Below are positions 8,301 to 64,000 of a stretch of 64,000 nt of DNA, one piece after another. The DNA lies in NCBI GenBank assembly GCA_032718475.1, contig JAUCBJ010008224.1, positions 16,448 to 80,447 of the forward strand, in the 5' to 3' direction. Below the pieces are notes generated by a model that was not told where the DNA came from, did not search any database, and saw nothing but the letters and a program-made list of their open reading frames with translations. The number at the start of each line of letters is the position of its first letter. Within the stretch, counting starts at the first letter, position 1. This DNA is from Nemertoderma westbladi. Taxonomy: Eukaryota > Animalia > Xenacoelomorpha. The position numbers and the translations under genes are program-made.

Positions 8301-9009
8301 CCTACGTAATGCAGACGGCTTTAGAAGGAAGGAGATAGTCGAAAGATTGCAGTTTTTTTTGGAAGGAAATTTATTCAGAGTTGCTCAGGTCGTTATTATT
8401 TATATAATTTATAATATTATATTCAAAATTATACCGTAAACGATATACTAATTACTAATATTCAATATGTAGGATTGATTGCCCTATTCTAGCCGTAAGA
8501 ATACAAAAGTCTCTCCCGCTGTATTTCAGAATAATGAGCCCAGCTGTCGAGCTGACTATTGTATTTAAAAAAAAACTATCAATTAATCTATATAGTTGGC
8601 GATAATTGTTACTGTAGGTCAATAATACAGTATAGCCACGGCATTTATTGGCTTTCCATTATGCGGACAGATATGCCACCTAACATACTTCTAGATTGAG
8701 ATTACAATACAATGCACAACTTAATTAACTCACACCACCAATAATCAACTTACAATAATTAAATAAACCTATTAGTAAGTATAGTTACAATCTCTCGATA
8801 AATCGAATCACATATTAAATAAGCATAAAACTCAACTGAACTGAAATATAATTCTTCGTTTACAAATAAATATGAATATAGCACAATAAAGAAAAGGTCG
8901 GGATGATTATTGCCACGCGCAGCGGCGCCAACACTTAGCATTATTTTATAGGAAACGATTATCAAAAAACGTTATAGTTCTAGATTCTTGTAAAAAAAAA
9001 AAGGGTAGA

Positions 9010-10816: not shown

Positions 10817-13693
10817 GGGTGCATGTAAAGAGCGGACTGCGGACTGGCGGACTACGAACTGCACTGCGGATTGCCAAAATCCGCGCGGTCAATTTGAATT
10901 ATCGACTTCTAAACTAAGAATCCGCTCTTTGTTGTCTGGACAAATGGCGGACTGAAGCCGGTAAATTGTGACCTGATTGTCTCAATAATTTACATAGGCT
11001 GAAAAGGAACTTAAAGAATGAATCATCCCATTGGCTTTTAAATTTTTACTATTGTGCAACTCTGTCAGACTGTAATACAGGAAATAATTATCCTATACAG
11101 TCTGACAGTACAGCAGTAATTACGTGGACTGTTGATTAAGGGCCTACGCCTAATACTGTACTATATAACTGTAAAATCCATAATCAGCATTCTACGGATT
11201 TTCAGATTATTTATTTCTGTATTTCAATAAATATATTTATATACTTCAGATTTATATACTTCTTTATACACTTCCTGCCTTTAGAGTTTATGTCACAGTT
11301 ATTTCTGTATTTAGGATCCAAAAAGGGCTGCACCTAAAGTTTGTATCTGTAGTAAGCATCACTCCATTTTGTGAGAGTCACATCACTCCAATTACATGAG
11401 CAATAAAATCGGAAAACATAACAATAACTGTCCCCCTGTTTGGATCTTTACAAACCCATTTGACATACCAGTACCGATCATTTGAGCCTTCATCAGTCAT
11501 AAAAGGGTTGGCTACTTCATGAAAATTACCTTTGTCAATTATATTCTCTTTCTGTCTTTGGAACGTTTTTGGCAATAAATGGCCTGTCGTCCACCCTTAC
11601 AGCCTGAGACTGTGGAAGGGCAGAAACTTCCTTAGCCACAGCTCAGATTCTGAAAGTAATTTTAGTGTTTTCGGATTAGTACGATAATAAGGAACTTTGT
11701 TATTATGTTTGCTATTTCCGTGTGAAAGATTAGTGGAGAATGAAAGATTAGAACTGAACGTTACACCAAGATCCTTTTCTTCATTGATAGATTCTAGAAT
11801 GGATTCATTCATGGAATAAGATGACTGCGGATTCTTACGTCCAAGATGAACAACTTTACACTTAGCTGGGTTGCTGGGTTGAACTGAAGATGCCAACGAT
11901 TTTCCCAATCAGCAAGTGAGTCTAAGTCAGCCTGGAGACAATCAATATCAGCAGAAATGTGGAGTGCCCTATAAATTTTGGTGTCATCAACAAACACCTT
12001 GCAAGTGGATGATACAACATCAGGAATGTCATTCACAAATATTAGGAACAAAATAGGGGCAGTCACCGTTCCTTGGGGGACACCACTGGAGACCATATGT
12101 ACGGGAACTACATAGTACACCATTTATACGTACACACTGGGAACGATTAGAGAGGAAATTGCTGATCCATTGTGCCACACTACCTTGGATTCCATATGCG
12201 TTCAACTTTTGGAGAAGCAGCTTGTGGTATACAGTATCAAAGGCACGACGCAAATCGAGATATACTACATCGGCTCCAGAGTTGGGTAACTGTGTGGAAC
12301 GGCGGGACCTTTCTCCATGTTCTGAGTCGGTGAATAGGTTGTTTGATTCGAAATGGTTTACCAAAGCATCTCTTCCAAACTTCTCACAAACTTTCGCCAA
12401 GATGCATGTGAGGGAGATAGACAGTAGTTTTCCGGATTGTGTCTAGGCAGTTTCTTAAGTGGAGGATTAATAATGGCAACATGCCAATCATCAGGCACCT
12501 CACCCGTTTCAAAGGACATCCTAAATATACTATGACATGGAACAGCAATCACAGCTGCCAGTTCTTTAAGAACCCTACTATGGAGAAGATCTGGGCCAGC
12601 CGACATAGTAGGATTTAGATCACTCAGGGAGTCCAGTACATCATCAACAGAAAAATGAATATGTTCCAAAGGTTGGAGGTTTGTAGTAATATTTGAGATG
12701 TTAGGTCTGTAGTCACATGGAATATTCTGATATTGTTGTCATCGGTGAATACATTGGAAAATGTAGCCTATTACTGAATATTTCCGCCATACCAGTTTCT
12801 GAACTCACGGATTCACCCTCACTACGCAACGGGCCTACTGGACATCTGGTTTTCCTCTTAGAGTGTGGTTTCATTACAAAGTCAATTTTATTTGGGATCT
12901 CCCCACGCCAACGATAAGTTATGAATACGAATACACGTTCCGGATCATTCGGATCATATATATCGGATCATTCTTATTTGTCGAGTAAGTATGCCTAAAA
13001 TTCCGTCATTATCCAATAATTTCGAAATATGAGACTCTGTACATCGGTACACGCCCATTGCATCAATAGAATAATTTTCCACATTTTCTTTTCCTACTTC
13101 ATTGGAATCCTAAACAAACGTACAGTTACATAAAACTGTCTCAATCTGGCGTTTAGCCGTAAAATCACACCTTTATCATCTGCTTTACTAAGTCAACATA
13201 CTCTTCCCTCGCGATACTAGGACGACAAGGTACTTCATTACCTAGAGTGTGACCTATAGCGGTGTTATTATTGTGACAAGACAACAACGAAACTCTAAGT
13301 TGCCCAGTGAGAGGACCATCTCCTGTCCCTGTACTACAGGGGTTGTTAACTTCACGATTGTTATCACCTGCCGGTAATGGTAGTTCAGGGTCGGGATCAT
13401 TTAAGACAGTAAAATTTACAGTATAATTATACTGTAGTAATGTTGGAATATTGTTTCCATCTCTAGTGTCACAATGAAAACATTTAAGCCAATAAGAGGA
13501 TTCAGGAAAGTTCCCTTTGGGCCTATGTAAATGATTGAGCCAATCAGGTTACATTTCTGGCTTCAGTCCGCGGTTTGACCAGACAACAAAAGAGCGGATT
13601 CTTACATTATAATGCTATAATTCAAATTGACCGCGCATATTTGGGCTTTTAATTGACAATCCGAAGTCCGCAGTCCGCTCTTTACATGCACCC
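10817..13693 (-). mobile_element. Mutator-like (MULE) DNA transposon, decayed, ~250-bp TIRs, 9-bp TSD
   Basis: Ends are GGGTGCATGTAAAGAGCGGACTGCGGACT (10817) and AGTCCGCAGTCCGCTCTTTACATGCACCC (13693), with further inverted matches (CGCGGTCAATTTGAATTAT, AAGAATCCGCTCTTT). GTATTTATA flanks both sides (10808-10816, 13694-13702). The minus-strand remnant GVMLTTDTNFRCSPFWILNT (~11300-11370) resembles the first-Asp region of MULE transposases. Confidence 0.8.
11720..12900 (-). mobile_element. CR1-like LINE reverse transcriptase fragment (frameshifted) nested in the MULE
   Basis: SAGPDLLHSRVLKELA, DVVYLDLRRAFDTVYHKLLLQKL, SGVPQGTVTAPILFLIFVNDI, VFVDDTKIYR, LQADLDSLADW..RWHLQFNP and KCKVVHLG...EKDLGV are CR1-clade RT motifs, spread over several frames. 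Confidence 0.9.
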
Positions 13694-13827: not shown

Positions 13828-14035
13828 GGCCTCAACCATAATTATAACTGCAGAACTGTCATGTAACCCTACCGGTAACACTAAGTCATAATCTAAGAAA
13901 TTTGATATTTAGCGGAATTTCTGGTTCTGACATTATTGCCATCTAGGCTTAATGGCAATAATGAATAATGTCCGAAATTATGACTTAGGCACTTAGGGTT
14001 AGGGTTACATGACAGTTTTAATTAGTGTTGAGGCC
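13828..14035. mobile_element. Small palindromic MITE-like element (~208 bp) containing TTAGGG units
   Basis: Nested inverted matches: GGCCTCAAC/GTTGAGGCC, AACTGTCATGTAACCCT/AGGGTTACATGACAGTT, CTAAGTCATAAT/ATTATGACTTAG, CATTATTGCCAT/ATGGCAATAATG. No clear TSD. Confidence 0.65.
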
Positions 14036-14548: not shown

Positions 14549-16802
14549 CAAGGTGTACTATATGGTGTATATACAAGGCCATGCCATCGAGTTAACTGAG
14601 GGCGGTGACTGGGGGGCAAGATTTTCTTAAGTTTTATAACAGAGATTTCATTCTGTTATTACAATTTATGATTAAAATACGCTTTGGTATGACTGTATTA
14701 GTAATTATTGCAAGTAATGCCTCTTGTTAGTTTTCAATTATGGGATAATTTACCATTCAGACTGTCATTTTATAAATTACTGTACTGCTGTGTACTGAAA
14801 TGACAATCCCATGGATGTACTACAGTCAAAAGTGAATAAGCCTACCCAAAAATCAGCAATTCTGTAATCGTTGTAATCGTAGCGTTTGTATTCATGAGTT
14901 TCTCTATCTTTTAATAATAATATTATTTAAAATGGGGAAAAAGTGCGCTATACCGAAATGCCAAGGAAACTATTATGGGGCCTTATTATGGGGCTATTAG
15001 TGGACCGGACCGGATCGGACAGTTGGTGAGGTGGAGAGTACTCGGTGTTGAGTGTTCCGTACAGCCGTATTCCAGTATTCCACCTACCACCGGTGCGTTA
15101 AAATCTCGAGAAGTATAATTCACGCCAACTACAGATACTGTTATTTTATTAAACATTGGCCGGATGACGTCGCGATTGTAATGGTCCTCCGGGGTAAACC
15201 TCGACCAGCTGTACCGCCATCAGTTTGGTCATTCCCTGTGGGCGTCCTCCCACTGTCCCAACACTGGAACCGCCGCCTCGACCAACCAGTGGATCGAGTG
15301 CTGAGGAGAAGAGATCTCTCACTATAGATCCTTTTGTTGCCTTCTCAGTCTCAGTTCAGGATTCTCTCGGCACTCGGTTCAGTCGAGGAACTCATAAAAG
15401 CAGGTCAAAAATTGTTGGATGTTATTTACAGAGTAGCCTATTCGTTATCCAGTGATACACCTCATCGAATCCACTCTGCCTCTTAATATACAATATTCGA
15501 ACCTCATACCTTTGTTTATAATTTCTGTTCACCCTTATTTTACCTTTAAAACCAACTCAAATGGAGTTGAGGTTAGAATTCTCAGTTTATCTAAGAACTG
15601 AGACTTCATTCGCAATTGTTTTTATATAATTTAATTATAACAATTTTATTTGATAAATATGAAGTTGCGATTGAGAAATATAATAAAATAATTGAAGAAC
15701 ATCTAAGAACTGAAGAATAGAGTTTTCAAACACAACAAGAAACATCTTTTGGATGAAGCCGTTGGTCAGTTAACTACACTTAATAAAACACCTGGACATA
15801 AAATAATAATGCGAAACATGGGGCTCTTGGGATGTCGCCAATTTGGAGAGAAAAAGTATTCGAACGATGACATTATCAGAGCCTTTCGATATTATGATGT
15901 CTTAATGATGATTAACGATGATGTCTTAATTTCCTTGTCGTTTAATTCCCTGGAACCCAAACGTCGCAATAGTATGATTTTAACCGATGACAAAAGTTAA
16001 AAGGCAATAAGTCCGCGCCCAGAGAGATTGTGATATGGGGGCGGGGCGGGGGGGGGGGGGGGGGGTCACACACCTAATTTTCAGGTTTATACGTTTAATT
16101 TTCAGGATTGCTACATAATCTATTTAATTAATAAAGAGCCCTTATCAGGGCCATTGATGTGTTTTCACGCTGGGGAATATTGGGTCGGCAATCATAATAT
16201 TTAATAAAGTAATAATATAAAGTTCTTGATAATAAAATAAAATAAGCCTATTGTAAAAGTATCAGACTGCGCTAATTCTCACCTAATCTCGGCTACACGG
16301 CCTCTATTAAAGGTCGACTTGTCTATTACCCATTTAGTGGAACATTATTTAATTTTACAATACAATAGGCTTATTAACACAACAATATTGGATATATTTC
16401 ATAGTCTTATAAAGAACTCAGTTGTAATATAAAGTGATCTGTTGCTACTTAGAGTAGAGTTTTACATATATTTCATATGAAAACTAACGTGGTGAAGTAA
16501 ATACGATGATAAAATTAATGCTGCATTTCATAATTGAAAGTAATAATACTTAATATTTGGCAATATTTATTGAACACAATAAACTAAAGGCATAGCGGTC
16601 CATTATCATAATATTATCATAATTTAAAAATTAACATAAGATACATTACTTACAATTACTAATACAGTCATACCAAAGCGTATTTTAATCATAAATTGTA
16701 ATAACAGAATGAAATCTCTGTTATACAGCTTAAGAAAATCTTGCCCCCCAGTCACCGCCCTCAGTTAACTCGATGGCTTGGCCTTGTATATAGTACGCCT
16801 TG
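14549..16802 (+). mobile_element. Non-autonomous P-superfamily element with ~160-bp TIRs, 8-bp TSD and THAP-domain remnant
   Basis: 14549-~14707 is the reverse complement of ~16653-16802 (CA...TG ends). Flanks are GCTTTATC (14541-14548) and GCTCTATC (16803-16810). Inside are MGKKCAIPKCQGNY (ATG 14932) and IKHWPDD..RGKPRPAVPPSVW, the two ends of a THAP C2CH finger, then KKYSNDDIIRAFRYY. No catalytic core is visible. Confidence 0.85.
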
Positions 16803-49100: not shown

Positions 49101-52020
49101 CCACTCCAAGTTGGCACGTTCTACCACACAGCAACCTACCCAACCACTCCAAGGTTGGCACGTTCTACCACACAGCAACCTACCCAACCACTCCAAGTTG
49201 GCACGTTCTATCACACAGCAACCTACCCAACCACTCCAAGTTGGCACGTTCTACCACACAGCAACCTACCCAACCACTCCAAGTTGGCACGTTCTACCAC
49301 ACAGCAACCTACCCAACCACTCCAAGTTGGCACGTTCTACCGCACAGCAACCTACCCAACCACTCCAAGTTGGCACGTTCTGCCACACAGCAACCTACCC
49401 AACCACTCCAAGTTGGCACGTTCTACCACACAGCAACCTACCCAACCACTCCAAGTTGGCACGTTCTACCGCACAGCAACCTACCCAACCACTCCAAGTT
49501 GGCACGTTCTACCACACAGCAACCTACCCAACCACTCCAAGTTGGCACGTTCTACCACACAGCAACCTACCCAACCACTCCAAGTTGGCACGTTCTACCG
49601 CACAGCAACCTACCCAACCACTCCAAGTTGGCACGTTCTACCACACAGCAACCTACCCAACCACTCCAAGTTGGCACGTTCTACCGCACAGCAACCTACC
49701 CAACCACTCCAAGTTGGCACGTTCTACCACACAGCAACCTACCCAACCACTCCAAGTTGGCACGTTCTACCACACAGCAACCTACCCAACCACTCCCAAG
49801 TTGGCACGTTCTACCACACAGCAACCTACCCAACCACTCCAAGTTGGCACGTTCTACCACACAGCAACCTACCCAACCACTCCAAGTTGGCACGTTCTAC
49901 CACACAGCAACCTACCCAACCACTCCAAGTTGGCACGTTCTACCGCACAGCAACCTACCCAACCACTCCAAGTTGGCACGTTCTGCCACACAGCAACCTA
50001 CCCAACCACTCCAAGTTGGCACGTTCTACCACACAGCAACCTACCCAACCACTCCTAGTTGACACGTTCTACCACACAGCAACCTACCCAACCACTCCAA
50101 GTTGGCACGTTCTACCACACAGCAACCTACCCAACCACTCCTAGTTGCAACGTTCTACCACACAGCAACCTACCCAACCACTCCAAGGTTGGCACGTTCT
50201 ACCACACAGCAACCTACCCAACCACTCCAAGTTGGCACGTTCTACCACCACCAGCAACCTACCCAACCACTCCTAGTTGCAACGTTCTAACCACCACGCA
50301 GCAACCTACCCAACCACTCCAAGTTGGCACGTTCTGCCACACAGCAACCTACACAACCACTCCTAGTTGCAACGTTCTACCACACAGCAACCTACCCAAC
50401 CACTCCAAGTTGACACGTTCTACCACACAGCAACCTACCCAACCACTCCAAGTTGGCACGTTCTACCACACAGCAACCTACCCAACCACTCCTAGTTGCA
50501 ACGTTCTACCACACAGCAACCTACCCAACCACTCCAAGGTTGGCACGTTCTACCACGCAGCAACCTACCCAACCACTCCTAGTTGCAACGTTCTAACCAC
50601 CACGCAGCAACCTACCCAACCACTCCAAGTTGGCACGTTCTGCCACACAGCAACCTACACAACCACTCCTAGTTGCAACGTTCTACCACACAGCAACCTA
50701 CCCAACCACTCCAAGTTGACACGTTCTACCACACAGCAACCTACCCAACCACTCCAAGTTGGCACGTTCTACCACACAGCAACCTACCCAACCACTCCTA
50801 GTTGCAACGTTCTACCACACAGCAACCTACCCAACCACTCCAAGGTTGGCACGTTCTACCACGCAGCAACCTACCCAACCACTCCTAGTTGCAACGTTCT
50901 AACCACCACGCAGCAACCTACCCAACCACTCCAAGTTGGCACGTTCTGCCACACAGCAACCTACCCAACCACTCCAAGTTGGCACGTTCTACCACACAGC
51001 AACCTACCCAACCACTCCAAGTTGGCACATTCTACCACACAGCAACCTACCCAACCACTTCTAGTTGCAACGTTCTACCACACAGCAACCTACCCAACCA
51101 CTCCTAGTTGCAACGTTCTACCACACAGCAACCTACCCAACCACTCCAAGTTGACACGTTCTACCACACAGCAACCTACCCAACCACTCCAAGTTGGCAC
51201 GTTCTACCACACAGCAACCTACCCAACCACTCCTAGTTGCAACGTTCTACCACACAGCAACCTACCCAACCACTCCTAGTTGCAACGTTCTACCACACAG
51301 CAACCTACCCAACCACTCCAAGTTGACACGTTCTACCACACAGCAACCTACCCAACCACTCCAAGTAGGCACGTTCTACCGCACAGCAACCTACCCAACC
51401 ACTCCAAGTAGGCACGTTCTACCACACAGCAACCTACCCAACCACTCCTAGTTGCAACGTTCTACCACACAGCAACCTACCCAACCACTCCTAGTTGCAA
51501 CGTTCTACCACACAGCAACCTACCCAACCACTCCTAGTTGAAACGTTCTACCACACAGCAACCTACCCAACCACTCCAAGTAGGCACATTCTACCACACA
51601 GCAACCTACCCAACCACTCCTAGTTGCAACGTTCTACCACACAGCAACCTACCCAACCACTCCAAGTTGACACGTTCTACCACACAGCAACCTACCCAAC
51701 CACTCCTAGTTGGCACGTTCTACCACACAGCAACCTACCCAACCACTCCTAGTTGCAACGTTCTACCACACAGCAACCTACCCAACCACTCCAAGTTGGC
51801 ACGTTCTGCCACACAGCAACCTACCAACCACTCAAAGTTGGCACATTCTACCACACAGCAACCTACCCAACCACTCCTAGTTGGCACGTTCTACCGCACA
51901 GCAACCTACCCAACCACTCAAAGTTGGCACATTCTACCACACAGCAACCTACCCAACCACTCCAAGTAGGCACATTCTACCACACAGCAACCTACCCAAC
52001 CACTCCTAGTTGCAACGTTC
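19128..52020 (+). repeat. ~33-kb satellite array of 43-bp monomer TTGGCACGTTCTACCACACAGCAACCTACCCAACCACTCCAAG and 47-bp variant (…TCTAACCACCACGCAGC…)
   Basis: Uninterrupted head-to-tail repeats in one orientation, roughly 750 monomers by length/unit size. Recurrent variants are CCTAG, TTGCAA, TTGACA, GTAGGC, TCTGCC, ACCGCA and CCAAGG. Confidence 0.99.
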
Positions 52021-52500
52021 TGTATGCTATACCGGGCATAATCCGGGGTCTTTTCCCCTAATTTGGAATCTTATCCAACGGAGCGTTGCAAATAACTTGA
52101 GTTTATAAAAGGACAGTATAATAATAATCTATAATAATATATAACTTGCAACAGCTCGTGAATTTAATGGCTCCTTAGGGGAGACCATTAGTTTTAGTAA
52201 CAAAGTATTATAACTGCACAACTTCTATCTATGAATAAAACCAATGAATGTTTAATATATATGAAGTATTATGCTACCAATATTAGCCCAGTAAAAATAC
52301 TTAATCCCCAATATCCAATAGGAAGTCGTTTCCTTGTCCCCAGCTTACATTACATTAATGGTTGATGCACCAGTACTGCCTGGTATAAGGGGATAATTGG
52401 TGTTTCAAAACAGCTGATGAGTAGGTAACAATACAGCTTGGATTTGGCATTTTCCTATAGGGGTTAGATGAACTGAATGTATTTCATGGAACCGAATACA
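52021..52500 (-). repeat. 3' LTR (480 bp, TGTAT...ATACA)
   Basis: Matches 63526-64000 over all 475 comparable bases as read by eye. It has 5-bp terminal inverted repeats, and the PPT abuts 52500. Confidence 0.9.
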
Positions 52501-52515
52501 GTCCCCTAATTTTTT
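52501..52515 (-). other. Polypurine tract
   Basis: The minus strand reads AAAAAATTAGGGGAC immediately before the LTR start TGTATTC. Confidence 0.7.
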
Positions 52516-53867
52516 GTGGTCAAGGACAAACAAAAAATTACCCAAATAGAAATAAGAACAACATGATAGAAATATACAAATTACGAATAGTTTGAAAATA
52601 ATTGTGAAGGCACTTGAAGCGTACATAATATTTACTTACTGTCAAAATCGGATTCAATATAAACAAATATACTTGAAGCGTACATACGTTACAATATCAC
52701 TCTGCTATAAAATCGTATACGTAAACAGGCTTGATATATAGAATTGTACATACAATCAAATACTTCCAAGGCACTAATTAAATTTATAATCGCAATTAGT
52801 ATAAATGACCTCCTTCAACTTAGAACAAGAATATCTAAAAACACTTTTATTTTCAATGGTGAAACATAATTAATCAATAACCATTTGGTTTAGACATACA
52901 CCAGATGACTAGGTGTTACGAAAAAAGTATGTTATATTATATAAACTGCACCAGAAATGACCTAAAGCTGGAGTATAATATTGGTTGTCAATTGAAAATT
53001 TTCAACGCATAGTAATTTTGCTCAGAGAAACAAACAAGTGTTATGAATATATTATTTAATTAAATATTTAATTATTATATTCTTTATTTTATTGGAATGG
53101 AATGGAATGGGACGAACGTCTTCTTCGAGAATCAGTAGTTCCACTTACCTTTATTGATACATTCGAAACGTCAGGAACTGTCTGTGTTACAATTACGATA
53201 CTTACCTCAGGAGATTTCAACGATCTTTAGTAATAGCAACCATGAACCGTAACATTATTATAATTTGTTAATTACCTGATTAATGATAAATGGGCATCCG
53301 TAAATTATTTAACGCCAAAGTTTATACAGTAGGTTTATTTCCTTGCAATCCACGCATACAGTAGAATTCAAATCCAGGGAACATTAAAGTCCTTGTTTTG
53401 ACTTTGGTTGAGGCAGGTTTAATTATAAGGTACTGTAGATTATTGTAGACCAATAGAAAGCCAGTATTCGTTCGTTACTATTGAATGAACCAGCTGTGTT
53501 TACACTACATTACAATAATACTGACATGACGTACTACTACACTAGAGAACGTAGCGCATAATAGGTTTCAATACCTGTACGTACAGTAGTAGTATATTAG
53601 TAATTGTTATTAGTAGTAAATTGTAATAGTACATTAAATACAGTGATAAACGCTATGCAATAGTATGTTACTTTAATTTATAGCCTAATAAATGTAATCG
53701 TAACTCACAATAACGTCAATGTATTTATAAACCGTGTCAAATTATGTCAACATGGACAAGGTGGTGAATTATAATATAATACTAACCATTCAAATTTAAC
53801 TTTGCACAAATTACAAATCAGTCCCCAGTTAAATTGAATGGAATGTGTCAGTGTGACGTAGTATTTG

Positions 53868-56800
53868 TTATTGCCGGGGGATTACTTGGTTGTCTTTAGG
53901 GTTGTCTAAGGCAGCTTCCAACAAACATAGTTTTTGTATTGGGCGGCATAATATCGAAGTAGGCGTTTTTACATGAACAGATCTTACTAAATTATCTGCG
54001 CTAGGTAAAACCTCCGTAATCCGACCCATCTTCCAGTTGTAACGCTTCGTGTTAGGGTCAACAATTAAAACTAAATCTCCTATGACAAAATTGCGACGTG
54101 GTCGTAACCATTTTTGTCTGGTCATAAGACTTTGTAGGTAGGTTTCCTGCCATATTCGCCAATATTGGCTGGCCAAATACTGTGCTTTTCGCATCATCGT
54201 TTTGTAATTTAATTCATGTTCTTCGTAAAGTTCGTGCAATAAAAGATTTGAATTTGGTAAAGCCGTTTTTCTGCGTAGCAGCAGATGATTTGGCGTTAAA
54301 ACTTCATGTGACGTAACGTCATCGTTAAGCGGACAAAGTGGACGGTTGTTAATTAAGTACTGAACCTCCGCTAATGTGGTACGAAGTACCTCTTCTGACA
54401 CTAACTTGTGGTCTATATATCGCTTTGCCATCAGTGCATGGAATGTATTTTTTGTAGTTTTTATGAGTCGCTCCCATACACCTCCGTGATTACTTGCAGT
54501 TGGAGTTTGGAAGTGCCACTCTATTTTTCCTACTATGTCTTCATCTATTCCTTTTTCCTTAGCTTCGGTTACTATTTTTTCCAGTTCAGTTTCACTGCCG
54601 CTAAAATGACTTCCTTGGTCGGAATATATATGTTCTACCCCCGCATGATTACAAATGAATCGTCGAAGGATGCATAATAATGCGTCTGCACTATAGTTTA
54701 GAGATATGTCTAGAACTATGGCTCTGGAACACATGCACGTAAACAATACACCAAATCTCTTGTCGGATCCTCTTCCCCTAGTGACGTATATCGGCCCGAA
54801 TAAATCCACTCCTAGGTTGGTAAAGGGAGGGAGGTAGTCTATGGTTCGAACGAAGGGCAGGGGGGCCATAAGTTGTTGTCCAGGTTTAGAAAGGCGTTTA
54901 CGACACGGGATACACTCGTGCATGATAGTTTTAACTAGTCTACGGAGGGCGATTATCCAGTATTGTTGTCTGACTTTATGAATAGTATAATCTACACCCA
55001 AGTGTCCGTTTTCTTTGTGTATGTCTCGTACAATTACCTTTGTTAAATGGTGTGACGATGGCAATATTATAGGATGAGTAGTATCATAAGTTGAGGTTTG
55101 TGTGAGGCCCAATCTGGAATCCATACGTAGCAAACCGTCCTTGCCAATAATTGGGTTTAACATAGCGATCCCTTTCGGTATTTTCTGTGGTGTGTTATTT
55201 GCAATGGAGTCAAGTATGTCGTTAAATGTAGTTTCTTGAAGCAATCTTATAATTTTTATTTGAGCATCTTGGAAGCATTTTTCATGTAGTCTGTCGTTAC
55301 AAATTACATCGTCAATTGTTTCCCCACGTTTTGCACAGCTTTTGCGGTGATTGTAATATATTTTTTCTAAGAATCGCGACACCACTCGTTTCAAAAGGTT
55401 AAATGCCCCAAATCGGTGTAACAAGTTGTGTACTGATGTTAACGGTTTACTGACATCTGCAGTAGCAATTACTTTCGATTTAGATGTTTTTGCAGGCTTG
55501 ACTGATTTTAAACCGGCTTCCAATGGTATATCTGCATGCTGCATGGGATTAGTCTTTTTAAGTGCGTCTGTCCATTCCTGCTCAGGTTGCCGTAAGAATT
55601 GTGGTCCACGATACCAACAGTCTTGGTATTTGTTGATGAAATCAATCGGTTCGCTACCACGACTAGCTATGTCTGCTGGATTTCTGTTTCCAGGTATGTG
55701 ACGCCATTGTTCTGGAACAGTGTAACGTCGAATCTCTTCGATTCTATTTGCTTCATATGTCTCGAATCTACGCGATTCATTTGCCAACTGACATAATACG
55801 CTTGTAGAATCAGACCAGCATACTATATTTGCAGACAGTATCGGCGAGGTAATGTAATTTACGATTTGTTGATGGCTGCGGACTAACAATATAGCAGCCT
55901 GCAGTTCGAGTCTGGGAACAGATACACGCTTTAGGGGGGCAGTCCTTGTTTTAGAGTACACCATGGCACAAGATATTTGTCCTAAAGGAGATGATTTTCG
56001 TATGTAAGAAATACAGCCATATCCTGAGGTGCTAGCGTCACAAAAATGATGCAACTGTAGTATGTCGTCAGGGTGCGACGTCATATCATAAAAGTAGTGT
56101 CTAGGAATATGCAAGTTGTTTAAATGTTCTAGCTGACCGTACCACTGATCCCATTCGGCTACCAAAATTGGTTCTAGAATACTATCCCAGCCTACTTTTA
56201 GACCCCACAATTTTTGCAGAAACTGCTTCCCTCGAAGGACAACAGGTGAAACTAGTCCCAATGGATCATAAACCGAGGCAACTGCTGCTAGACAGCCTCG
56301 TTTAGTGGGAGGATGCAGCTTAGTCATAGGCTTAAATGTAAAGTTGTCTGTTTCTGGAGACCAACTAATACCTAAGGCTCTAGCTTCTGGTAACTTATCG
56401 AATGCTAAGTTGAGTTCAGAATGCGCTCTTCTATCATCTGGTATGAGCTGGAGGAGTTCTTTAGAATTGGAAATAAACTTGGTTAAAAAAAATCCTCCTA
56501 GCTGAAGGCAGTCAATAATCCCCAAAGCTAAGCGAGAAGCGCGTTGTACAGAGTCTGCTCCAAGCATTCCATCATCAACATAGAAGGCATCCATTATGGC
56601 TTCAGTCACATCCTGGGGAAACTTATTTTTGTTGTCATGCGCTGTTTGGCGTAGGGCATAAGTGGCTGCACAAGGAGAATCCTTCGGACCAAACATATGT
56701 ACCAACATCCGATAAATAATAAGCTCTTCCGGATTCTTGGGTTCTGCGTCTCCTTCCCACCAGATAATATTTTGTGATTGTGAGTCCCGGTCGTATGTTC

Positions 56801-59800
56801 TTACCTGATGGAACATGCTTTTTACGTCGCATGCAAATGCAATCCTGTGTCGTCTGAAATTTAAGAGAACCTTAACAACACTGTTATAAATATTGGGTCC
56901 CTCCATAAGCTCGCTGTTTAGACTCATTCCCTTATAGGAAGCTGCAGCATCATTTACAATACGGATGCTACCGGGTTTGTTTGGATTCCAAACGGGGTGA
57001 GTGGGAACATAATATGTCCTGGGACCTTCTGGTAATAATCTCTCAGCCAGAGTGAGTCTCCTAGCATATCCTTTAGCTTCGTAGTCATCGAAGACTGCCT
57101 GATATTGAATATGTTCTATGGGACTCTTTGCCAGTTTCCTTTTGATCCATCTAAGTCGACTTAAGGCCAATGGCTTGTTGTTAATAAGAGATTTGTCCCT
57201 ATTTAGCCACAACTTTTCGACATAATAATGACCATCAGTTAATTTTGTGCTTTCCTTTAAAATCTTTTCACATTTATGGTCTTGTACTGATTTGTTATCT
57301 AGACGGGTAGGGCAATAATATGCCTCTGAGTCAAAAAACTTTTTTAGTTGATCATGTATAGTTTCATCCCCGGGAAAGTTATATAATCTCCACGGACAGC
57401 ATTCTACATGATGAATGTCAAAGGTCTGTCTACTTGTCGATTGTCTGTCATGTGAAAGGTAGTCTACTGGAACGCCAGGATCATTCCGTAAATCCCATTT
57501 AAATGGTTGGGGTGCACCTTCTGCGTGTTCAATAAAATCATATTTCGAACTGTTTTCTGGTAAGCAAGTATTAATTTCAACATTTGGACGCGGTATGGCG
57601 GTGGAATTGTCGGCAGCTAATGTTGTTTCTGATTTCATATCACATGTAGTGAGTGGCCCAACGAGAGTCCAACCAAAGGGAGTCTTGATTGCATGAGGGT
57701 TATTTTCCTCATCATAAGGAGTAGGTCCCCATACAGTCTTACTAACTTTATGGGCCAAAGGATTATTTATCCCAATTAAAATAGATATACGATTAATGTC
57801 GACAATGGGATAATTGAGATTTATATTTCTTAAGTAAGTTAAACCGTTGAGAGAAAACTTACTTGGTCTGGCATAAGTTAAATGAAGGTCCGGCATCAAC
57901 ATCACATCCTTAAGGGACAGAACAATGTTTCCTTCCTGAAGGATTGATCTGACAATACAGTTGCCTTGTCCAATTGTCTTGTTTTGATCTTTTGTCAATA
58001 TAGTATTGAGGGCCACATCAACAGAATGAGTCTGTATATTTAAATACTGTCCAACAGTCTTATCTATAAAGGTCCCCGTAGATCCCTCATCCAGTAGTGC
58101 AAGGGTGGTGAGTCTCTGCCCAGTGGTGGGACTCTCGATCTCCAAAGGAATAACTCGTAGAAAGACTGCTTTAATGTCTAGAGTCAGCGGTGCTATATCG
58201 TGGTTCATAGTCATTGTAGCTACTTGTTTGTACAACTTATGATCTGGGGTGGTTGTAGATCCTATAAATCGGCTAAATTTAATTGATCGATCTGATTTGC
58301 TATCTCTCTGTAATGCATAATAATTTTTAATAAGATTGTCTGTGTCATCATCTGTCTTTCCTGGTTCCGGGTGTAGTACTCTAGCATGTCGTCTACCACA
58401 CCCATTAATTGTGCATCTGTACTTTGACGTACACTTTTTCCGCCAATGTCCCTTTCTTAAACACAATGTACATAGTTTTTGGTCAATGATAAGGTCATAG
58501 CAGTCATCTCTACCAAGGTTTTGTAATTTTATGCATTGGGTTAAGGGGTGGGCCCCTTTACAACATATGCAGTAAGATGAGGATTCAGACGCCAGAGCAT
58601 TAACATCAACCTGTATGTCGTCAAAGTCCATAGGAGAATCATCGTGAACGTGAGTAACCATTTCGTGGATGATTGAATCTCCAACCTCAGAGGATCGCTC
58701 CTCTGTGGCAAATGCATTTGTCACATGGAAATTTTCCATTGTACTGGTGGCTTTGGGTTCTATGGGAGGTCTATAAGCGAATCCTTTGAACCTATCACCC
58801 ATTTTACACCTTAAAATTTGTTCTGCAGCCTGTGGTCCATATAATGGACAGGTTGCAATACTTGCTTCCTTGTCCAAAAATTGGACTAACTCAGGCATAC
58901 CCGGATCTATTCCTTGTTTTAGTCGGAACTTATACACATATACAGCCCACTTAGTCCGTATAGAATTAGACAAATTTGCTGCAACTTGCTGAATGAAGTC
59001 GGGGTTGTTTACGTAGGCATAACAATTTAAGCTCTGCAAAATATCCATGGTTCGTCTCACATCATGTGAATATTTTAACAGCTCTTTGGGAGATGCTATG
59101 GGGTACCTGCACCTGGTAACGTCAGCCACAACGGCTTTCATTACAGTAGCCGGCTGCCCATATCTTCTTTCCAGGGTGTTCCATGCCTGGGCGTATCCAT
59201 TGGGCATGCCCTCATAATGCTCTATCATGTCAAGAGGGTCCCCTCTGACGTAAGTTATTAAGTATCTAAGCTTCACATCATCGGGTACATCTTTCATATC
59301 TACCTGGGTTCGAAACCTGTTCTTAAATCCCAAGAATTTTTTGGGATCACCCGTGAATGGAGTTGGGTCTAATTTGGGGGCTTCCAATGATAAGGCTAAT
59401 TTCTCAAATAATGCATGCTGTTGATACGCTGTTGGATGATCACAATGGGGTTGTGTTCGATTATGTCGCCACCCTTTATTTATGGATCTATTGCTATTTT
59501 TGCTGCTATTATTTAATGAGTCATCGTCTGAAGGACCATCGGGGTCAGGGTCGGGGTCATCATCAGGATCGTCAGGCCCATTGGGTTGAGAATCTCGGGG
59601 GTTATAAGGATCCCGGTAAGGACGACCATTGTTGCCTGAGTTACGATCCCCATCTGGGTCTCTGTCTGGATATTCAGGATCGACAGCTCTGCGTCTCCCC
59701 ATCATGCCTGAATTTAATGGCACCTGTAGGTGTGATTTCTCAGCGTGGTAACGGCTAGGGCCACTGCCACCAAACCCATAATTATTTGAGGATTCCCGTT

Positions 59801-62543
59801 CTGATGGATTCACTAAGGGCTGAGTATCTGCCCATTGGTGAGTGCTGTGTGGTTCGGCGTAAAATGACCCCCCTCGTGGTCCCCGTGACACTTGGAATGC
59901 TTCAGTGTGTATAGGCTGGTTTCTATGCCGGGATTCAATGGGTGGGTTGAGTATATTGGAATAGTCGATTTTTCTATATGCTCCAGGCACACATGACTGG
60001 TTTCGCAACGGTGTCTGTGCAATAGAAAACCGCGGGGTTGTTGTGCCTGCTTTAGAAACAATGCGCTCCCTTACTTTATCAATTTTTTGGGTCCCGGTAG
60101 CAAAATCAGTACGAGTCTGGGTTTCCATGATTGGGGTACTCGCATGCTGCACCAGATGTTCGACAGCTGTGTTGATACTAGTAAGAACTTCAGTTAGTTG
60201 TTGATGTGTCACTGGACGATCTTCAGGGATCGACGGCATAGCTTTATTTTCAAAACCGCTGGTCTTAAAATTACCCCCACCCTTTTTAAAAATTCTTGTA
60301 TTTTGAGGTTGAGAAAGGCACGGATGGAGAGATTCCATCTCATCCGACCACTCCTCCTCAGAGTCAGTAGCTAATTTATTAAACCTCCTGCTGGAAGTAG
60401 GACATTTTGTACTGGCCAATGGTTCTATATGACAATGAGTGTATTTATTCGCTATTTGATGTAAATTCACCGTGGGCGGGATATCTACAGTAGAAGGAAT
60501 ATGTACTGTAGATGGAATATCTACAGTAGAAGGAATATCTACAGTAGAAGGAATACGTCCTGTAGATGGAATATCTGCAGTGGAAGGAATATCTACAGTA
60601 GAAGGAATATCTACAGTAGAAGGAATACGTACTGTAGATGGAATATCTGCAGTAGAAGGAATATCTACAGTAGAAGGAATACGTACTGTAGATGGAATAT
60701 CTGCAGTAGAAGGAATATCTACAGTAGAAGGAATACGTACTGTAGTGGAAGGAATATCTACAGTAGAAGGAATACGTACTGTAGTGGAAGGAATATCTAC
60801 AGTAGAAGGAATACGTACTGTAGATGGAATATCTGCAGTGGAAGGAATATCTACAGTAGAAGGAATACGTACTGTAGATGGGATATCATAGTCTAATAAA
60901 GTGTTAGAACTCTGTCTAGAGTTATTCAGAATACGGCTGTCAGGATACAGAATTTCACAATTTGTGGATAATTCCACCAATGACATTGGTGGTGCCTCCA
61001 GGTCTACAAAGGCATCTGTTTCCAAGGCGTTATGCACACTGGTTTCCAGACGCTGCCTGTAGTCATCGTGCTGACTCCGGTAACGTGCATGTTGCAAATC
61101 AATTTCTTCTTTGCGTCTGTTTGCTCGTTCCGATATTTCAGCTTTCTTCAAAAGCTCCCTCTCGACTCGTTCCACCTCTTCCTTCCTTTGCCGAGCCCGC
61201 CGCTCAATTTCTCTTATCTTCTGCTTAGCTTGCCATACTCTTTGCTGCTCGTCTTCCTCTGCCTCATGCAGAGCCTGTCGTTCAGCTTCCTTTCGCCGTT
61301 CGATCTCACTTCTCTTCTGCTTAGCTAGCCATACTCTTTGCTGCTCGTCTTCCTCTGCCTCATGCAGAGCCTGTCGTTCAGCTTCCTTTCGCCGTTCGAT
61401 CTCCCTTCTCTTCTGTTTAGCTAGCCTTACTCTTTGCTGCTCGTCTTCCTCTGCATCATGCAAAGCTTGGCGTTCAGCTTCCTTGGCATGCTCGATACGA
61501 TCAGCCGCCTGGGAAACCAGAAGCTCATTCTCCAGTTGTCTGTTTTCTCTCTCTGCAGAATGTAACAGGCGCAAAGCCTCCTCAGCTTGTCGATTTGCCA
61601 ATATCGATATATTTCCCTCTGCTAGCCTTCTAAGTCTAGCTGATTTTGTGGAACTAGTCCTAGAAATATTAGATGTTACAGCTGACAGTCTACCGATACT
61701 ACCGCCCCCCTCTGGTTCAATTTCAGTTCGGTGTAGTCTAGACCTCTGGGTAATTAAATTTGGAGACAGTAAGTCTGAGGTCGTGTCGTGCTGTCGTGTT
61801 ACTGGATTTATATGAGTAGGACGAGGAATGGAAGAGAAAGGCATTGGAAATTTATCCCATGTTAATGATTGTGCCGGACTATGGATTACCCTAGCTGTTC
61901 CTGTACTCACCTCCGACACCTCAACTACAGGATCTACATGGTGTGAACTTGCCCAGTTTACTAACTCTTGATACCTACCACGACAACTTACGTGTTTCGA
62001 ATAAGCTTGTTGGAATTCGTTAGCATTTCCTCCTTCAGTCTCATAATAAAGCGACTGCTTCCGATATTGTTTTAGAACCTGGTCCCATCTGGTATTCATT
62101 CTATCCAGCTTTCTAAGAAATTCTTCACTGCACTCACCTGGATTAGTTGTTCTAATTCGCTGCTCCAATTCCAATATATCGGCATTCATGTTGTGATAAA
62201 GTTGTCCCAGACTACGGTTGATAGCCGCAATGTCGATGGTGTTCGTAGCTGATCTAGGATGATTTGAGAGTCGAGACGGACGAGTTCTTTCAGTATTGAG
62301 ACCGTCCCCGGGCCCGGCAGCAGCGGTTTGGCGTAGCGATTCCCGGTTAGAAGTCGGCTCACGAATAAGAGTTTCATTGAGAGACATTATGCTCCCTCCG
62401 ATCGATATATTGTCATCGCTTGGTATGTTGGGCACATTTCTTGACTCCTCCATTTCCCTTTGTGGGCTTAAAGGAAGATTCATGATAGGCTGACCATCCG
62501 TAGAAGGGATGGGATCTAGTCTAGGGGGTGTATGATTTGACAT
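53868..62543 (-). CDS. BEL/Pao gag-pol polyprotein, 2891 aa (Gag, 3 zinc knuckles, aspartic protease, RT, RNase H, integrase)
   Basis: Gag PKLDPTPFTGDPKKFLGFKNRF..KLRYL. Knuckles CICCKGAHPLTQC, CTLCLRKGHWRKKC and CTINGCGRRHARVLH (~58370-58575). Protease ALLDEGSTGTFI (~58090). RT IRIVNDAAA, ACDVKSMFHQV and FYVDDG (~56575). Pao-type RNase H HHFCDAS, VPRLELQAA, WSDS and NPADIASRG. Integrase H-H-CIPC, GVDLFGP, YSDQG and GGVWERLIK, with the BEL C-terminal W..YL..L..RQKW...RPIQKLCLL. No stops or frameshifts. Confidence 0.97.
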   Translation of the reverse strand: MSNHTPPRLDPIPSTDGQPIMNLPLSPQREMEESRNVPNIPSDDNISIGGSIMSLNETLIREPTSNRESLRQTAAAGPGDGLNTERTRPSRLSNHPRSATNTIDIAAINRSLGQLYHNMNADILELEQRIRTTNPGECSEEFLRKLDRMNTRWDQVLKQYRKQSLYYETEGGNANEFQQAYSKHVSCRGRYQELVNWASSHHVDPVVEVSEVSTGTARVIHSPAQSLTWDKFPMPFSSIPRPTHINPVTRQHDTTSDLLSPNLITQRSRLHRTEIEPEGGGSIGRLSAVTSNISRTSSTKSARLRRLAEGNISILANRQAEEALRLLHSAERENRQLENELLVSQAADRIEHAKEAERQALHDAEEDEQQRVRLAKQKRREIERRKEAERQALHEAEEDEQQRVWLAKQKRSEIERRKEAERQALHEAEEDEQQRVWQAKQKIREIERRARQRKEEVERVERELLKKAEISERANRRKEEIDLQHARYRSQHDDYRQRLETSVHNALETDAFVDLEAPPMSLVELSTNCEILYPDSRILNNSRQSSNTLLDYDIPSTVRIPSTVDIPSTADIPSTVRIPSTVDIPSTTVRIPSTVDIPSTTVRIPSTVDIPSTADIPSTVRIPSTVDIPSTADIPSTVRIPSTVDIPSTVDIPSTADIPSTGRIPSTVDIPSTVDIPSTVHIPSTVDIPPTVNLHQIANKYTHCHIEPLASTKCPTSSRRFNKLATDSEEEWSDEMESLHPCLSQPQNTRIFKKGGGNFKTSGFENKAMPSIPEDRPVTHQQLTEVLTSINTAVEHLVQHASTPIMETQTRTDFATGTQKIDKVRERIVSKAGTTTPRFSIAQTPLRNQSCVPGAYRKIDYSNILNPPIESRHRNQPIHTEAFQVSRGPRGGSFYAEPHSTHQWADTQPLVNPSERESSNNYGFGGSGPSRYHAEKSHLQVPLNSGMMGRRRAVDPEYPDRDPDGDRNSGNNGRPYRDPYNPRDSQPNGPDDPDDDPDPDPDGPSDDDSLNNSSKNSNRSINKGWRHNRTQPHCDHPTAYQQHALFEKLALSLEAPKLDPTPFTGDPKKFLGFKNRFRTQVDMKDVPDDVKLRYLITYVRGDPLDMIEHYEGMPNGYAQAWNTLERRYGQPATVMKAVVADVTRCRYPIASPKELLKYSHDVRRTMDILQSLNCYAYVNNPDFIQQVAANLSNSIRTKWAVYVYKFRLKQGIDPGMPELVQFLDKEASIATCPLYGPQAAEQILRCKMGDRFKGFAYRPPIEPKATSTMENFHVTNAFATEERSSEVGDSIIHEMVTHVHDDSPMDFDDIQVDVNALASESSSYCICCKGAHPLTQCIKLQNLGRDDCYDLIIDQKLCTLCLRKGHWRKKCTSKYRCTINGCGRRHARVLHPEPGKTDDDTDNLIKNYYALQRDSKSDRSIKFSRFIGSTTTPDHKLYKQVATMTMNHDIAPLTLDIKAVFLRVIPLEIESPTTGQRLTTLALLDEGSTGTFIDKTVGQYLNIQTHSVDVALNTILTKDQNKTIGQGNCIVRSILQEGNIVLSLKDVMLMPDLHLTYARPSKFSLNGLTYLRNINLNYPIVDINRISILIGINNPLAHKVSKTVWGPTPYDEENNPHAIKTPFGWTLVGPLTTCDMKSETTLAADNSTAIPRPNVEINTCLPENSSKYDFIEHAEGAPQPFKWDLRNDPGVPVDYLSHDRQSTSRQTFDIHHVECCPWRLYNFPGDETIHDQLKKFFDSEAYYCPTRLDNKSVQDHKCEKILKESTKLTDGHYYVEKLWLNRDKSLINNKPLALSRLRWIKRKLAKSPIEHIQYQAVFDDYEAKGYARRLTLAERLLPEGPRTYYVPTHPVWNPNKPGSIRIVNDAAASYKGMSLNSELMEGPNIYNSVVKVLLNFRRHRIAFACDVKSMFHQVRTYDRDSQSQNIIWWEGDAEPKNPEELIIYRMLVHMFGPKDSPCAATYALRQTAHDNKNKFPQDVTEAIMDAFYVDDGMLGADSVQRASRLALGIIDCLQLGGFFLTKFISNSKELLQLIPDDRRAHSELNLAFDKLPEARALGISWSPETDNFTFKPMTKLHPPTKRGCLAAVASVYDPLGLVSPVVLRGKQFLQKLWGLKVGWDSILEPILVAEWDQWYGQLEHLNNLHIPRHYFYDMTSHPDDILQLHHFCDASTSGYGCISYIRKSSPLGQISCAMVYSKTRTAPLKRVSVPRLELQAAILLVRSHQQIVNYITSPILSANIVCWSDSTSVLCQLANESRRFETYEANRIEEIRRYTVPEQWRHIPGNRNPADIASRGSEPIDFINKYQDCWYRGPQFLRQPEQEWTDALKKTNPMQHADIPLEAGLKSVKPAKTSKSKVIATADVSKPLTSVHNLLHRFGAFNLLKRVVSRFLEKIYYNHRKSCAKRGETIDDVICNDRLHEKCFQDAQIKIIRLLQETTFNDILDSIANNTPQKIPKGIAMLNPIIGKDGLLRMDSRLGLTQTSTYDTTHPIILPSSHHLTKVIVRDIHKENGHLGVDYTIHKVRQQYWIIALRRLVKTIMHECIPCRKRLSKPGQQLMAPLPFVRTIDYLPPFTNLGVDLFGPIYVTRGRGSDKRFGVLFTCMCSRAIVLDISLNYSADALLCILRRFICNHAGVEHIYSDQGSHFSGSETELEKIVTEAKEKGIDEDIVGKIEWHFQTPTASNHGGVWERLIKTTKNTFHALMAKRYIDHKLVSEEVLRTTLAEVQYLINNRPLCPLNDDVTSHEVLTPNHLLLRRKTALPNSNLLLHELYEEHELNYKTMMRKAQYLASQYWRIWQETYLQSLMTRQKWLRPRRNFVIGDLVLIVDPNTKRYNWKMGRITEVLPSADNLVRSVHVKTPTSILCRPIQKLCLLEAALDNPKDNQVIPRQ
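60474..60886 (-). repeat. In-frame 18/21-bp tandem repeat encoding (D/R)IPST(V/A), ~22 units
   Basis: GGAATATCTACAGTAGAA and GGAATACGTACTGTAGAT units; the protein reads DIPSTVRIPSTVDIPSTA... Confidence 0.95.
61199..61483 (-). repeat. In-frame 96-bp tandem repeat x3 encoding a charged 32-aa coiled-coil-like unit
   Basis: TTCAGCTTCC recurs at 61281, 61377 and 61473; the unit is EAERQALHEAEEDEQQRVWLAKQKRSEIERRK. Confidence 0.93.
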
Positions 62544-63317
62544 TATTTTATTGAAATTATATTTCTTTACTTAGTTTGACTTAGTTATTTAAAATTTGTC
62601 CACTTTGATGTTTCTCGAATTTAAATTTAAAATTAAATTTAAATTATATTCCGTGGTATCTAAAATGTATAAAATTAACACTGCAATTGGCAACCTGTAG
62701 AACAAATGAATACCTACAGTAAATAAAGGAAAAATAACCTGTAGTATTAAAATATAATTAACTTATAAATCGAGATGACACCAAGTTAGTAGTCATCAAA
62801 CCAAACCAGTCTAGATTTGGCTCTATGGGGCGCTATACGCGGATATTTAAAACTATGGATCACTATTTATACGTTACTTATTAGCTTCAGTGGTGCCTTC
62901 ACTAATAATATGTTAAGTGATATAAATCAAATTATAACCAAAAAAAATAGAAATAAATTATAATACGAGGTTCAAACCTGACCCCGGTCCCAAAATACAC
63001 CTGGTTTGTAATGGAGACACTTTACAAATCAGGGGTGAACGTAGAAGTACCTTCTCACCCTCCGACGTCGCGTGGCGATAAATCTTCTTGCAAACTCAAA
63101 CCTGGCCCAAGAGAGAGTCCCTGCCCTACCAAGTCATCGGTCCCCGAGACCGATTCATGTTCAAATAGAGCCCACCGACAAAGAAGGAAAAGGTAAGACT
63201 AGACGTTGAGAGTCAGGAAAGCATAGAAAAATATAACCTACAGTTGTAATAATTGCACCACAATTAAAACAGAAAGTTATACTTATCGTTAGTTTTCCTT
63301 CGCCTCCGATAGAAGAT

Positions 63318-63482
63318 GAGAGTTTGAAAACTTGAGAGTTTGAGAACTTGAGAAACTTGAGAACTTTATGAACTTCAGAGAATTTGGAGACTTTTGAGAG
63401 CGTGATACACTTGAGAATGTTGTTAACTTCAGAGAACTTTGAAAACTTGGAGAACTTCAGATTGTGAGAAACTTGAGAACTG
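63318..63482. repeat. Degenerate 9-11-bp tandem repeat (AACTTGAGA) in the retrotransposon 5' leader
   Basis: Repeated AACTTGAGA, AACTTCAGA and AACTTTGA units. Confidence 0.8.
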
Positions 63483-63512
63483 TTCAACTGTTAAATTCAC
63501 TGTTCCAGTAGC

Positions 63513-63525
63513 CCATTAAATTCAC
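63513..63525 (-). other. Primer-binding-site position, non-tRNA type (GTGAATTTAATGG), complementary to LTR 63663-63675
   Basis: Directly follows the ...ATACA end of the 5' LTR on the element strand. It lacks the TGG start of tRNA PBSs and is an exact 13-nt inverted repeat of an LTR-internal segment. Confidence 0.65.
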
Positions 63526-64000
63526 TGTATGCTATACCGGGCATAATCCGGGGTCTTTTCCCCTAATTTGGAATCTTATCCAACGGAGCGTTGCAAATAA
63601 CTTGAGTTTATAAAAGGACAGTATAATAATAATCTATAATAATATATAACTTGCAACAGCTCGTGAATTTAATGGCTCCTTAGGGGAGACCATTAGTTTT
63701 AGTAACAAAGTATTATAACTGCACAACTTCTATCTATGAATAAAACCAATGAATGTTTAATATATATGAAGTATTATGCTACCAATATTAGCCCAGTAAA
63801 AATACTTAATCCCCAATATCCAATAGGAAGTCGTTTCCTTGTCCCCAGCTTACATTACATTAATGGTTGATGCACCAGTACTGCCTGGTATAAGGGGATA
63901 ATTGGTGTTTCAAAACAGCTGATGAGTAGGTAACAATACAGCTTGGATTTGGCATTTTCCTATAGGGGTTAGATGAACTGAATGTATTTCATGGAACCGA
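63526..64000 (-). repeat. 5' LTR (cut by the window end, ~5 bp missing)
   Basis: Direct repeat of 52021-52495. Confidence 0.93.

Follow-up and report, generated by a model that had tools for sequence, protein, structure and literature searches.

A BEL/Pao retrotransposon of Nemertoderma westbladi with a primer-binding site complementary to its own LTR, and predicted self-priming in a clade of its relatives

We here describe an intact BEL/Pao retrotransposon from Nemertoderma westbladi that likely uses its own RNA, and not a tRNA, to prime minus-strand DNA synthesis. The element occupies the right end of a stretch of 64,000 nucleotides (hereafter the window; assembly GCA_032718475.1, contig JAUCBJ010008224.1, positions 16,448 to 80,447). 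We read it as self-priming because its primer-binding site (PBS) pairs with a segment of its own long terminal repeat (LTR), because of where that pairing lies, because the enzymes are intact, and because the same arrangement recurs with different letters throughout a clade of relatives. An earlier note on this DNA had proposed self-priming on the model of Tf1. The proposal has been strengthened by its extension to a clade-wide trait, by co-variation and by a compensatory change, whereas the exact Tf1 detail, an RNA start at 63673 and an 11-nt capped primer, has found no support. A known mechanism thus likely occurs in a superfamily for which priming by tRNA has been described; more surprising is the prospect of a primer that, clade-wide, would be assembled by splicing.

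An intact BEL/Pao element

The minus strand at the right end of the window carries a single LTR retrotransposon of ~11,985 bp (Table 1). Its two LTRs show no mismatch over 475 nt, which implies a recent insertion; with this identity and a 2,900-codon open reading frame (ORF), the element is as intact and young as the earlier note had claimed. Since the identical copies extend by one shared base (G) beyond ACA, the LTR end was placed by the inverted ends TGTAT/ATACA. A target-site duplication is not part of the LTR evidence, the 5′ flank being beyond the window edge.

Pfam assigned Peptidase_A17 (4.6e-43), DUF5641, DUF1759 and Integrase_H2C2 to the ORF. Catalytic motifs, the RNase H acidic motifs among them, lie at residues 1492, 1996, 2176 and 2588-2699, and we take these to be the motifs of protease, reverse transcriptase (RT), RNase H and integrase. 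A homolog search with ORF residues 1780-2260 returned 222 proteins at E<=1e-20, and PF05380 is present in all 120 listed; among the matches listed, the best full-length ones are 41-45% identical, and named homologs come from cnidarians, a hemichordate, a barnacle, fish and mosquitoes. Pao-type Pol domains in the order PR-RT-RH-IN, two LTRs whose 480 nt fall within 0.2-1.2 kb together with a polypurine tract (PPT), and kinship of RT, RH and IN with other BEL/Pao elements, as seen in homologs and trees, place the element in BEL/Pao (Belpaoviridae). The 18-nt tRNA-complementary PBS described by ICTV is apparently absent, since TGG is missing from the first 9 nt after the LTR, the nearest triplets being at 10 and 18 nt past it; this PBS is a descriptive trait of Belpaoviridae and not a phylogenetic criterion. 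A Ty3/gypsy chromovirus Pol, as in the Tf1/sushi group, is not what the ORF encodes: its Pfam domains are Pao-type and a chromodomain is absent. The window element thus likely works like Tf1 without belonging to the Tf1/sushi group. None of the 120 listed homologs, at 1,596-2,200 aa, is as long as the ORF, and the element is too long for the 4.2-10 kb given by ICTV (PMC8742986). About 1,070 residues precede DUF1759 (minus strand, 62570-59360), with charged repeats at 61198-61484 and an 18-bp repeat at 60481-60887.

Table 1. Observed and predicted features of the element in the window
Feature	Position	Strand	Remarks
5′ LTR	63526..64000	minus	window edge removes 5 nt, full start presumably at 64005; ends GCATACA
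Strong donor-like site AAT/GTAAGC	63848..63853	minus	score 10.4; without strong acceptor beside primer
Candidate core promoter	63735..63766	minus	TATATATT at 63766 and initiator-like TTCATA with A at 63737, 29 nt apart
TATA-like box TATAATA	63711..63717	minus	44 nt ahead of 63673; motif scan
Self-primer segment, predicted	63663..63675	minus	CCATTAAATTCAC, exact 13-nt complement of PBS; putative role
Possible polyadenylation signal ATTAAA	63668..63673	minus	inside primer segment
Primer 3′ end, predicted	63663	minus	C63663
Long stem, predicted	63586..63662	minus	starts immediately 3′ of primer end; MFE folds
U5-end hairpin, predicted	63528..63545	minus	ends 2 nt before PBS; MFE folds
Primer-binding site, predicted	63513..63525	minus	GTGAATTTAATGG, offset 0 after LTR; starts GT, not TGG
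Second, shorter LTR-end/PBS copy	63491..63503	minus	ACA and first 10 PBS bases, 25 nt downstream
Single gag-pol ORF	53868..62570	minus	2,900 codons, first Met 62543; DUF1759, three Cys/His knuckles, protease, RT, RNase H (Peptidase_A17), integrase, DUF5641
Polypurine tract region	52501..52515	minus	adjoins 3′ LTR
3′ LTR	52021..52500	minus	480 nt, TGTAT...ATACA; carries primer-segment copy at 52170-52158

Complementarity between PBS and LTR in the window element

The earlier note had read an LTR ending in GCATACA, followed by a non-TGG 13-mer with an exact complement inside the LTR, and a pairing that extends by 2 nt past one bulge. All of its coordinates were confirmed, and the extension is as described. 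CCATTAAATTCAC is present in both LTRs, at 63675-63663 and at 52170-52158. Measured against the definition of self-priming as an LTR complement of at least 10 nt that starts 0-5 nt after the 5′ LTR, the window element has 13 nt at offset 0. When the LTR was shuffled with dinucleotides preserved, 12 of 100,000 sequences gave matches of at least 13 nt at offsets 0-3. The longest LTR complement at any of 11,025 internal positions is that at the first base after the LTR, and those at the other 11,024 are all shorter. ARAGORN found no tRNA genes within the 64-kb window, and Rfam gave a single match over 52000-64000, far below its threshold. A degenerate 9-bp repeat array lies at 63481-63324 (minus strand), in the 5′ leader after the second LTR-end/PBS copy.

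Complementarity across predicted splice junctions in relatives

A total of 107 loci with relatives were fetched, 74 and then 33. The first 74 came from a profile search of metagenome contigs, as the best 80 of 635 confirmed stretches; viral contigs gave none. LTR ends in relatives were set from two copies, within one contig or across contigs. Among loci from the best 80 of 635 stretches, only 3 of 11 had a contiguous complement of at least 8 nt at the LTR end, and an unanchored search for contiguous complements produced very noisy output. A test anchored at fixed LTR ends and admitting splice junctions, which was not blind since junctions had been spotted by eye in the LTRs beforehand, found an 11-15 nt complement at offsets 0-4 in 8 of 11 families. 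In seven of these it runs across a strict GT-AG junction and in one it is contiguous, and each was reached by none of 1,000 random internal positions. A ninth family (L064) gave 10 nt, with a relaxed acceptor only, and L005 and L061, both TGG-type, gave no LTR-PBS complement in the anchored test. TGG lies 2 nt after the LTR in L005, and 4-5 nt after an ACA in L061 and L013, where the LTR ends are presumptive and not fixed. The LTR end of L043 was shifted by 10 nt, to the divergence point of its two copies, after the junction had been seen. When LTRs and PBSs were swapped between families, 11 nt was reached by a single one of 132 mismatched pairs.

Another 38 loci lack a fixed LTR end; 12 of them pass the rule, against a mean of 0.5 and a maximum of 3 in 100 shuffles, the matches having been known before the GT/AT condition was set and many of the 26 misses being without an LTR. 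In a looser, unanchored scan the figure was 23 of 54; its controls, which had a larger search space, reached 5-16. The 33 loci fetched after the rule had been fixed include nine with both LTR ends visible, two of them TGG-type. Among the remaining seven, the strict rule was passed by L076 (11 nt, contiguous), L081 (11 nt), L096 (14 nt) and L083 (10 nt). The score of L083 made use of another donor, its homologous junction giving 11 nt with an intron of 451 nt, above the 400-nt limit. Two loci passed with any GT-AG only, L090 (11 nt, reached by 0 of 300 controls) and, weakly, L089 (10 nt, 8 of 300); L085 failed, with 8 nt and one mismatch within the junction.

Across the 17 junction loci, matches measure 10-15 nt and introns 71-305 nt, and the PBS starts with GT in 13, AT in three and AG in one. 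The PBS 10-mers are distinct in 16 of the 17 elements, each being complementary to its own LTR. Self-complementarity is missing in all five TGG-type relatives, in which the TGG lies 0-5 nt past the LTR. Several LTRs end in TA or AA and not in CA (L002:7444, L043:2153, L052:183, L096:6697 and L107:7511). The gap from LTR end to PBS varies by lineage between 0 and 4 nt (L002-L081), and may reflect integrase end processing.

Phylogeny, co-variation and intron loss

The tree that we relied on, which superseded a quick first tree, was built from 1,010 RT-RH-IN columns and 29 rows picked from a larger set. It places the window element inside a 100/100 clade of 21 rows that includes every self-complementary family and leaves out three TGG-type loci and two mosquito proteins. 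After the addition of ten loci, the two TGG-type ones among them fell outside the clade and all non-TGG loci inside. A group of the window element with TGG-type L005 and L001 was rejected (p-AU 0.0005). As far as can be judged from sequence comparison, a self-complementary PBS is a trait of a well-supported BEL/Pao clade. The window element forms a long branch, with a best identity of 41-47%, and a FastTree tree of an RT-RH subset left it unplaced; an arrangement with the other 20 rows together and the window element outside them or as their sister was not rejected (p-AU 0.124).

The earlier note had looked to related BEL families for co-variation between PBS and LTR segment, and such co-variation was found: it is family-specific in the swap test and extends to a compensatory change in the sisters L081 and L083. 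Before the same donor, their last three exon bases are CAC and TAA, respectively, differing at two positions, and the PBS reads GTG in one and TTA in the other, a compensatory double change altered at both matching positions. A second pair of sisters, L056 and L052, have LTRs that align with one 168-nt gap, which is the predicted intron, and the primer of L052 is in one piece. The 3′ LTR of L025 likewise lacks the intron found at the homologous place in L045, L027 and L003, and one-piece primers are also present in L028, L076 and, less cleanly, L022. Exact intron loss among sisters suggests, indirectly, that the predicted LTR introns are spliced.

Split primers are found in the nearest typed relatives of the window element (L004/L006, L037 and L039), and the PBS begins with GTGAA in both L004 and L037, which makes intron loss the simpler reading. 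The window copy has probably lost its LTR intron, as seen directly in L056/L052, although given the p-AU of 0.124 the one-piece primer may instead be the ancestral state. A splice junction building or extending the primer in the window LTR itself was rejected, the best candidates giving 7 nt under the strict rule and 9 nt with any GT-AG. The score of the donor-like site falls inside the leave-one-out range of the donors of the 17 relatives (5.9-11.2). CCATTAA, the first seven bases of the primer segment, is repeated before donor-like sites 63858 and 63853 (63866-63848, minus strand), at chance level; beside donor 63853 it could be a relic of a lost exon structure.

Transcription start and RNA folding

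The earlier note had favoured a start at 63673, with TATAATA at 63717 as the nearest TATA-like box, further upstream than usual. The box is there, at a distance of 44 nt, and a spacing of 44 nt between TATA and start is atypical. Neither this start nor an 11-nt capped primer finds support. The only TATAWAW box upstream of the primer segment in the window LTR, TATATATT at 63766, is 91 nt away, and among 19 LTRs examined seven have an upstream TATAWAW, at 31, 68, 91, ~123, 133, ~166 and 220-240 nt, so that a spacing of ~30 nt occurs in just one of the seven. Since these distances vary widely, the primer need not be the capped 5′ end. It had also been held that a start far from 63675 would refute self-priming; a start upstream of the segment would leave it standing. 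TTCATAG near 63737 could, by motif scan, alternatively serve as a splice acceptor. A further TATATATT lies at 63648, downstream of the primer segment; RNA started from it would lack the primer. If the ATTAAA in the primer is a polyadenylation signal, the R overlap for strand transfer would be small.

The region of the pairing has a folding z of -3.06. Mean pair probability of the helix is 0.93-0.98 in fragments starting at 63677-63690, 0.53-0.93 for a start at 63673 and 0.62-0.86 for a start at 63737; in longer fragments it ranges from 0.05 to 0.99, several dropping to 0.05-0.34. Alternative pairing with the second PBS copy has a probability of 0-0.43 that varies with the fragment ends. The predicted folding is compatible with the self-priming model without being decisive.

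A model of self-priming and its alternatives

Self-priming would begin with transcription from upstream of 63675, after which RNA 63675-63663 would fold onto the PBS and be cut after C63663, probably by the RNase H of the element as in Tf1, and the 3′ end freed in this way would be elongated by RT into U5, with 63526 as the first position. During plus-strand synthesis the primer is normally copied, which restores the PBS; here the self-primer would be copied back into the PBS, and the two would stay matched. Most relatives would possess a primer only once the LTR intron had been spliced out, and since the PBS is regenerated from the primer, a PBS that matches a splice junction would be the footprint of spliced RNA acting as primer. 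We lean slightly towards a wider model in which, in a large animal BEL/Pao clade, tRNA priming would have been replaced by a two-exon LTR self-primer assembled by splicing, so that reverse transcription would be licensed only on spliced RNA. Copies from which reverse transcription has removed the intron, probably including this one, would be splice-independent, and the primer would be internal and cut after a conserved AC/AT, rather than being the capped 5′ end.

A variant of self-priming would copy Tf1 exactly: the RNA would start around 63673-63677, and its capped 5′ terminal 11-15 nt would serve as primer. The initiator-like GCCATT at 63676 and TATAATA at 63717 would suit it, the helix is most stable with 5′ ends at 63677-63690, and in L004 a TATA box lies 31 nt ahead of the first base of the primer. 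This variant is nevertheless unlikely given the atypical 44-nt spacing, the rarity of a TATAWAW ~30 nt from the primer (one in seven LTRs with an upstream box), and TATATATT with its initiator, whose 29-nt spacing favours a start at 63737. One could also assume that the pairing is structural, with a role in packaging, dimerisation or a translation switch, and that priming occurs elsewhere or otherwise, for example by a tRNA at a downstream TGG. Extensive structure is predicted around the helix and TGG triplets do follow at 10 and 18 nt, but the pairing of 10-15 nt begins in these families 0-4 nt past the LTR, at the place required for the end of a primer, it is missing in all five TGG-type relatives, and a gap of 10 nt exceeds the 0-5 nt found in the latter, all of which makes a structural role improbable.

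Sister families alter both sides of the pairing together, which one host RNA cannot follow, and the PBS 10-mers, distinct in 16 of 17 elements, each match their own LTR. It is for this reason highly improbable that a tRNA half or other small RNA of the host is the primer and the LTR match incidental or a by-product, even though half-tRNA priming is known in Copia lineages (PMC6317226, in its accessible part). A half-tRNA primer, judged by eye, was dismissed on the PBS/LTR co-variation. A chance match, or a one-off inverted duplication in the window copy, might be invoked for an AT-rich LTR with a local LTR-end/PBS duplication at 63503-63491; with a shuffle p of ~1e-4 and the same arrangement recurring through the clade, it can hardly be credited.

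Relation to known systems

In Tf1, the PBS is paired with the 11 bases at the start of the RNA, and RNase H cleaves between the eleventh and the twelfth (PMC7175516, available text). Self-priming has been described for Tf1/sushi elements and Tcn1 and predicted for TAR copia elements (PMC6317226, PMC4600332, PMC5445492 and PMC6934838, as far as their accessible sections go). Tf1 and Tf2 of Schizosaccharomyces pombe, Tj1 of S. japonicus, Tf1/sushi elements and Tcn1 likewise have an LTR-adjacent PBS complementary to their own LTR over ~11 nt (PMC4600332, same portion). In contrast to these Tf1-type Ty3/gypsy elements, the window element is a BEL/Pao element; its predicted primer is not necessarily the RNA 5′ end, cleavage is proposed by analogy, and in most of its BEL/Pao relatives the primer spans a predicted splice junction. 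For the TAR lineage of Ty1/copia (Houba, Osr-1), self-priming is likewise predicted at the same level of evidence, from a complement of at least 10 nt starting 0-5 nt after the LTR. TAR belongs to another superfamily and its hosts to another kingdom, and in the accessible part of its description splicing does not figure (PMC6317226).

With Belpaoviridae as profiled by ICTV, the window element shares LTRs, a single gag-pol ORF, the PR-RT-RH-IN order and a PPT (PMC8742986). It differs in its self-complementary PBS, where the profile has one of 18 nt that serves tRNA-Arg or tRNA-Gly, and in its length of ~12 kb. The view of BEL/Pao elements as generally tRNA-primed, from which the earlier note set out, agrees with the profile, which calls their replication poorly understood (PMC8742986). 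Term look-ups in the accessible text of four BEL/Pao surveys (PMC3118150, PMC554778, PMC6238403 and PMC8220671) found no discussion of priming. No report of BEL/Pao self-priming was found in a search of openly accessible papers by title and start of abstract.

Self-priming has been demonstrated in Tf1 and predicted for certain groups of Ty3/gypsy and Ty1/copia. If true, self-priming in BEL/Pao would bring the mechanism to a third LTR superfamily, and is relevant to the order in which hairpin and tRNA priming arose, hairpin priming having been proposed as ancestral (PMC3601003, part available). A self-priming clade would also explain the missing PBS in many marine BEL/Pao elements. If splicing builds the primer, retrotransposition would be coupled to the spliceosome in a manner of which no earlier description was found; the window copy, intact and free of the intron, offers a natural comparison for such a model, with predicted RNA ends at 63663/63662. 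A BEL element of C. elegans is said to encode its own tRNA-like primer.

Other observations

Two-LTR BEL/Pao elements are present in records titled prokaryotic (L088:7469-13448, L096:5993-12898 and L107:6936-13766), among them a Wolbachia chromosome of 1.44 Mb and a MAG contig of 1.42 Mb. Contaminating host DNA, mis-binning or a symbiont fragment integrated in the host could account for them. In the window, the 3′ LTR of the element abuts a 43-bp satellite (19140-52021; ~749 copies, 94% matches) with strong strand skew. Long inverted repeats at 4335-5377, 10817-13693 and 14568-16792 resemble a foldback element and two TIR DNA transposons. Broken ORFs at 11597-12738 and 2002-3453 are presumably LINE RT-like and Gypsy-like, respectively. 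A G-rich minisatellite is located at 9009-10109, and a short TTAGGG-type run lies at 13993-14017, within one inverted-repeat arm.
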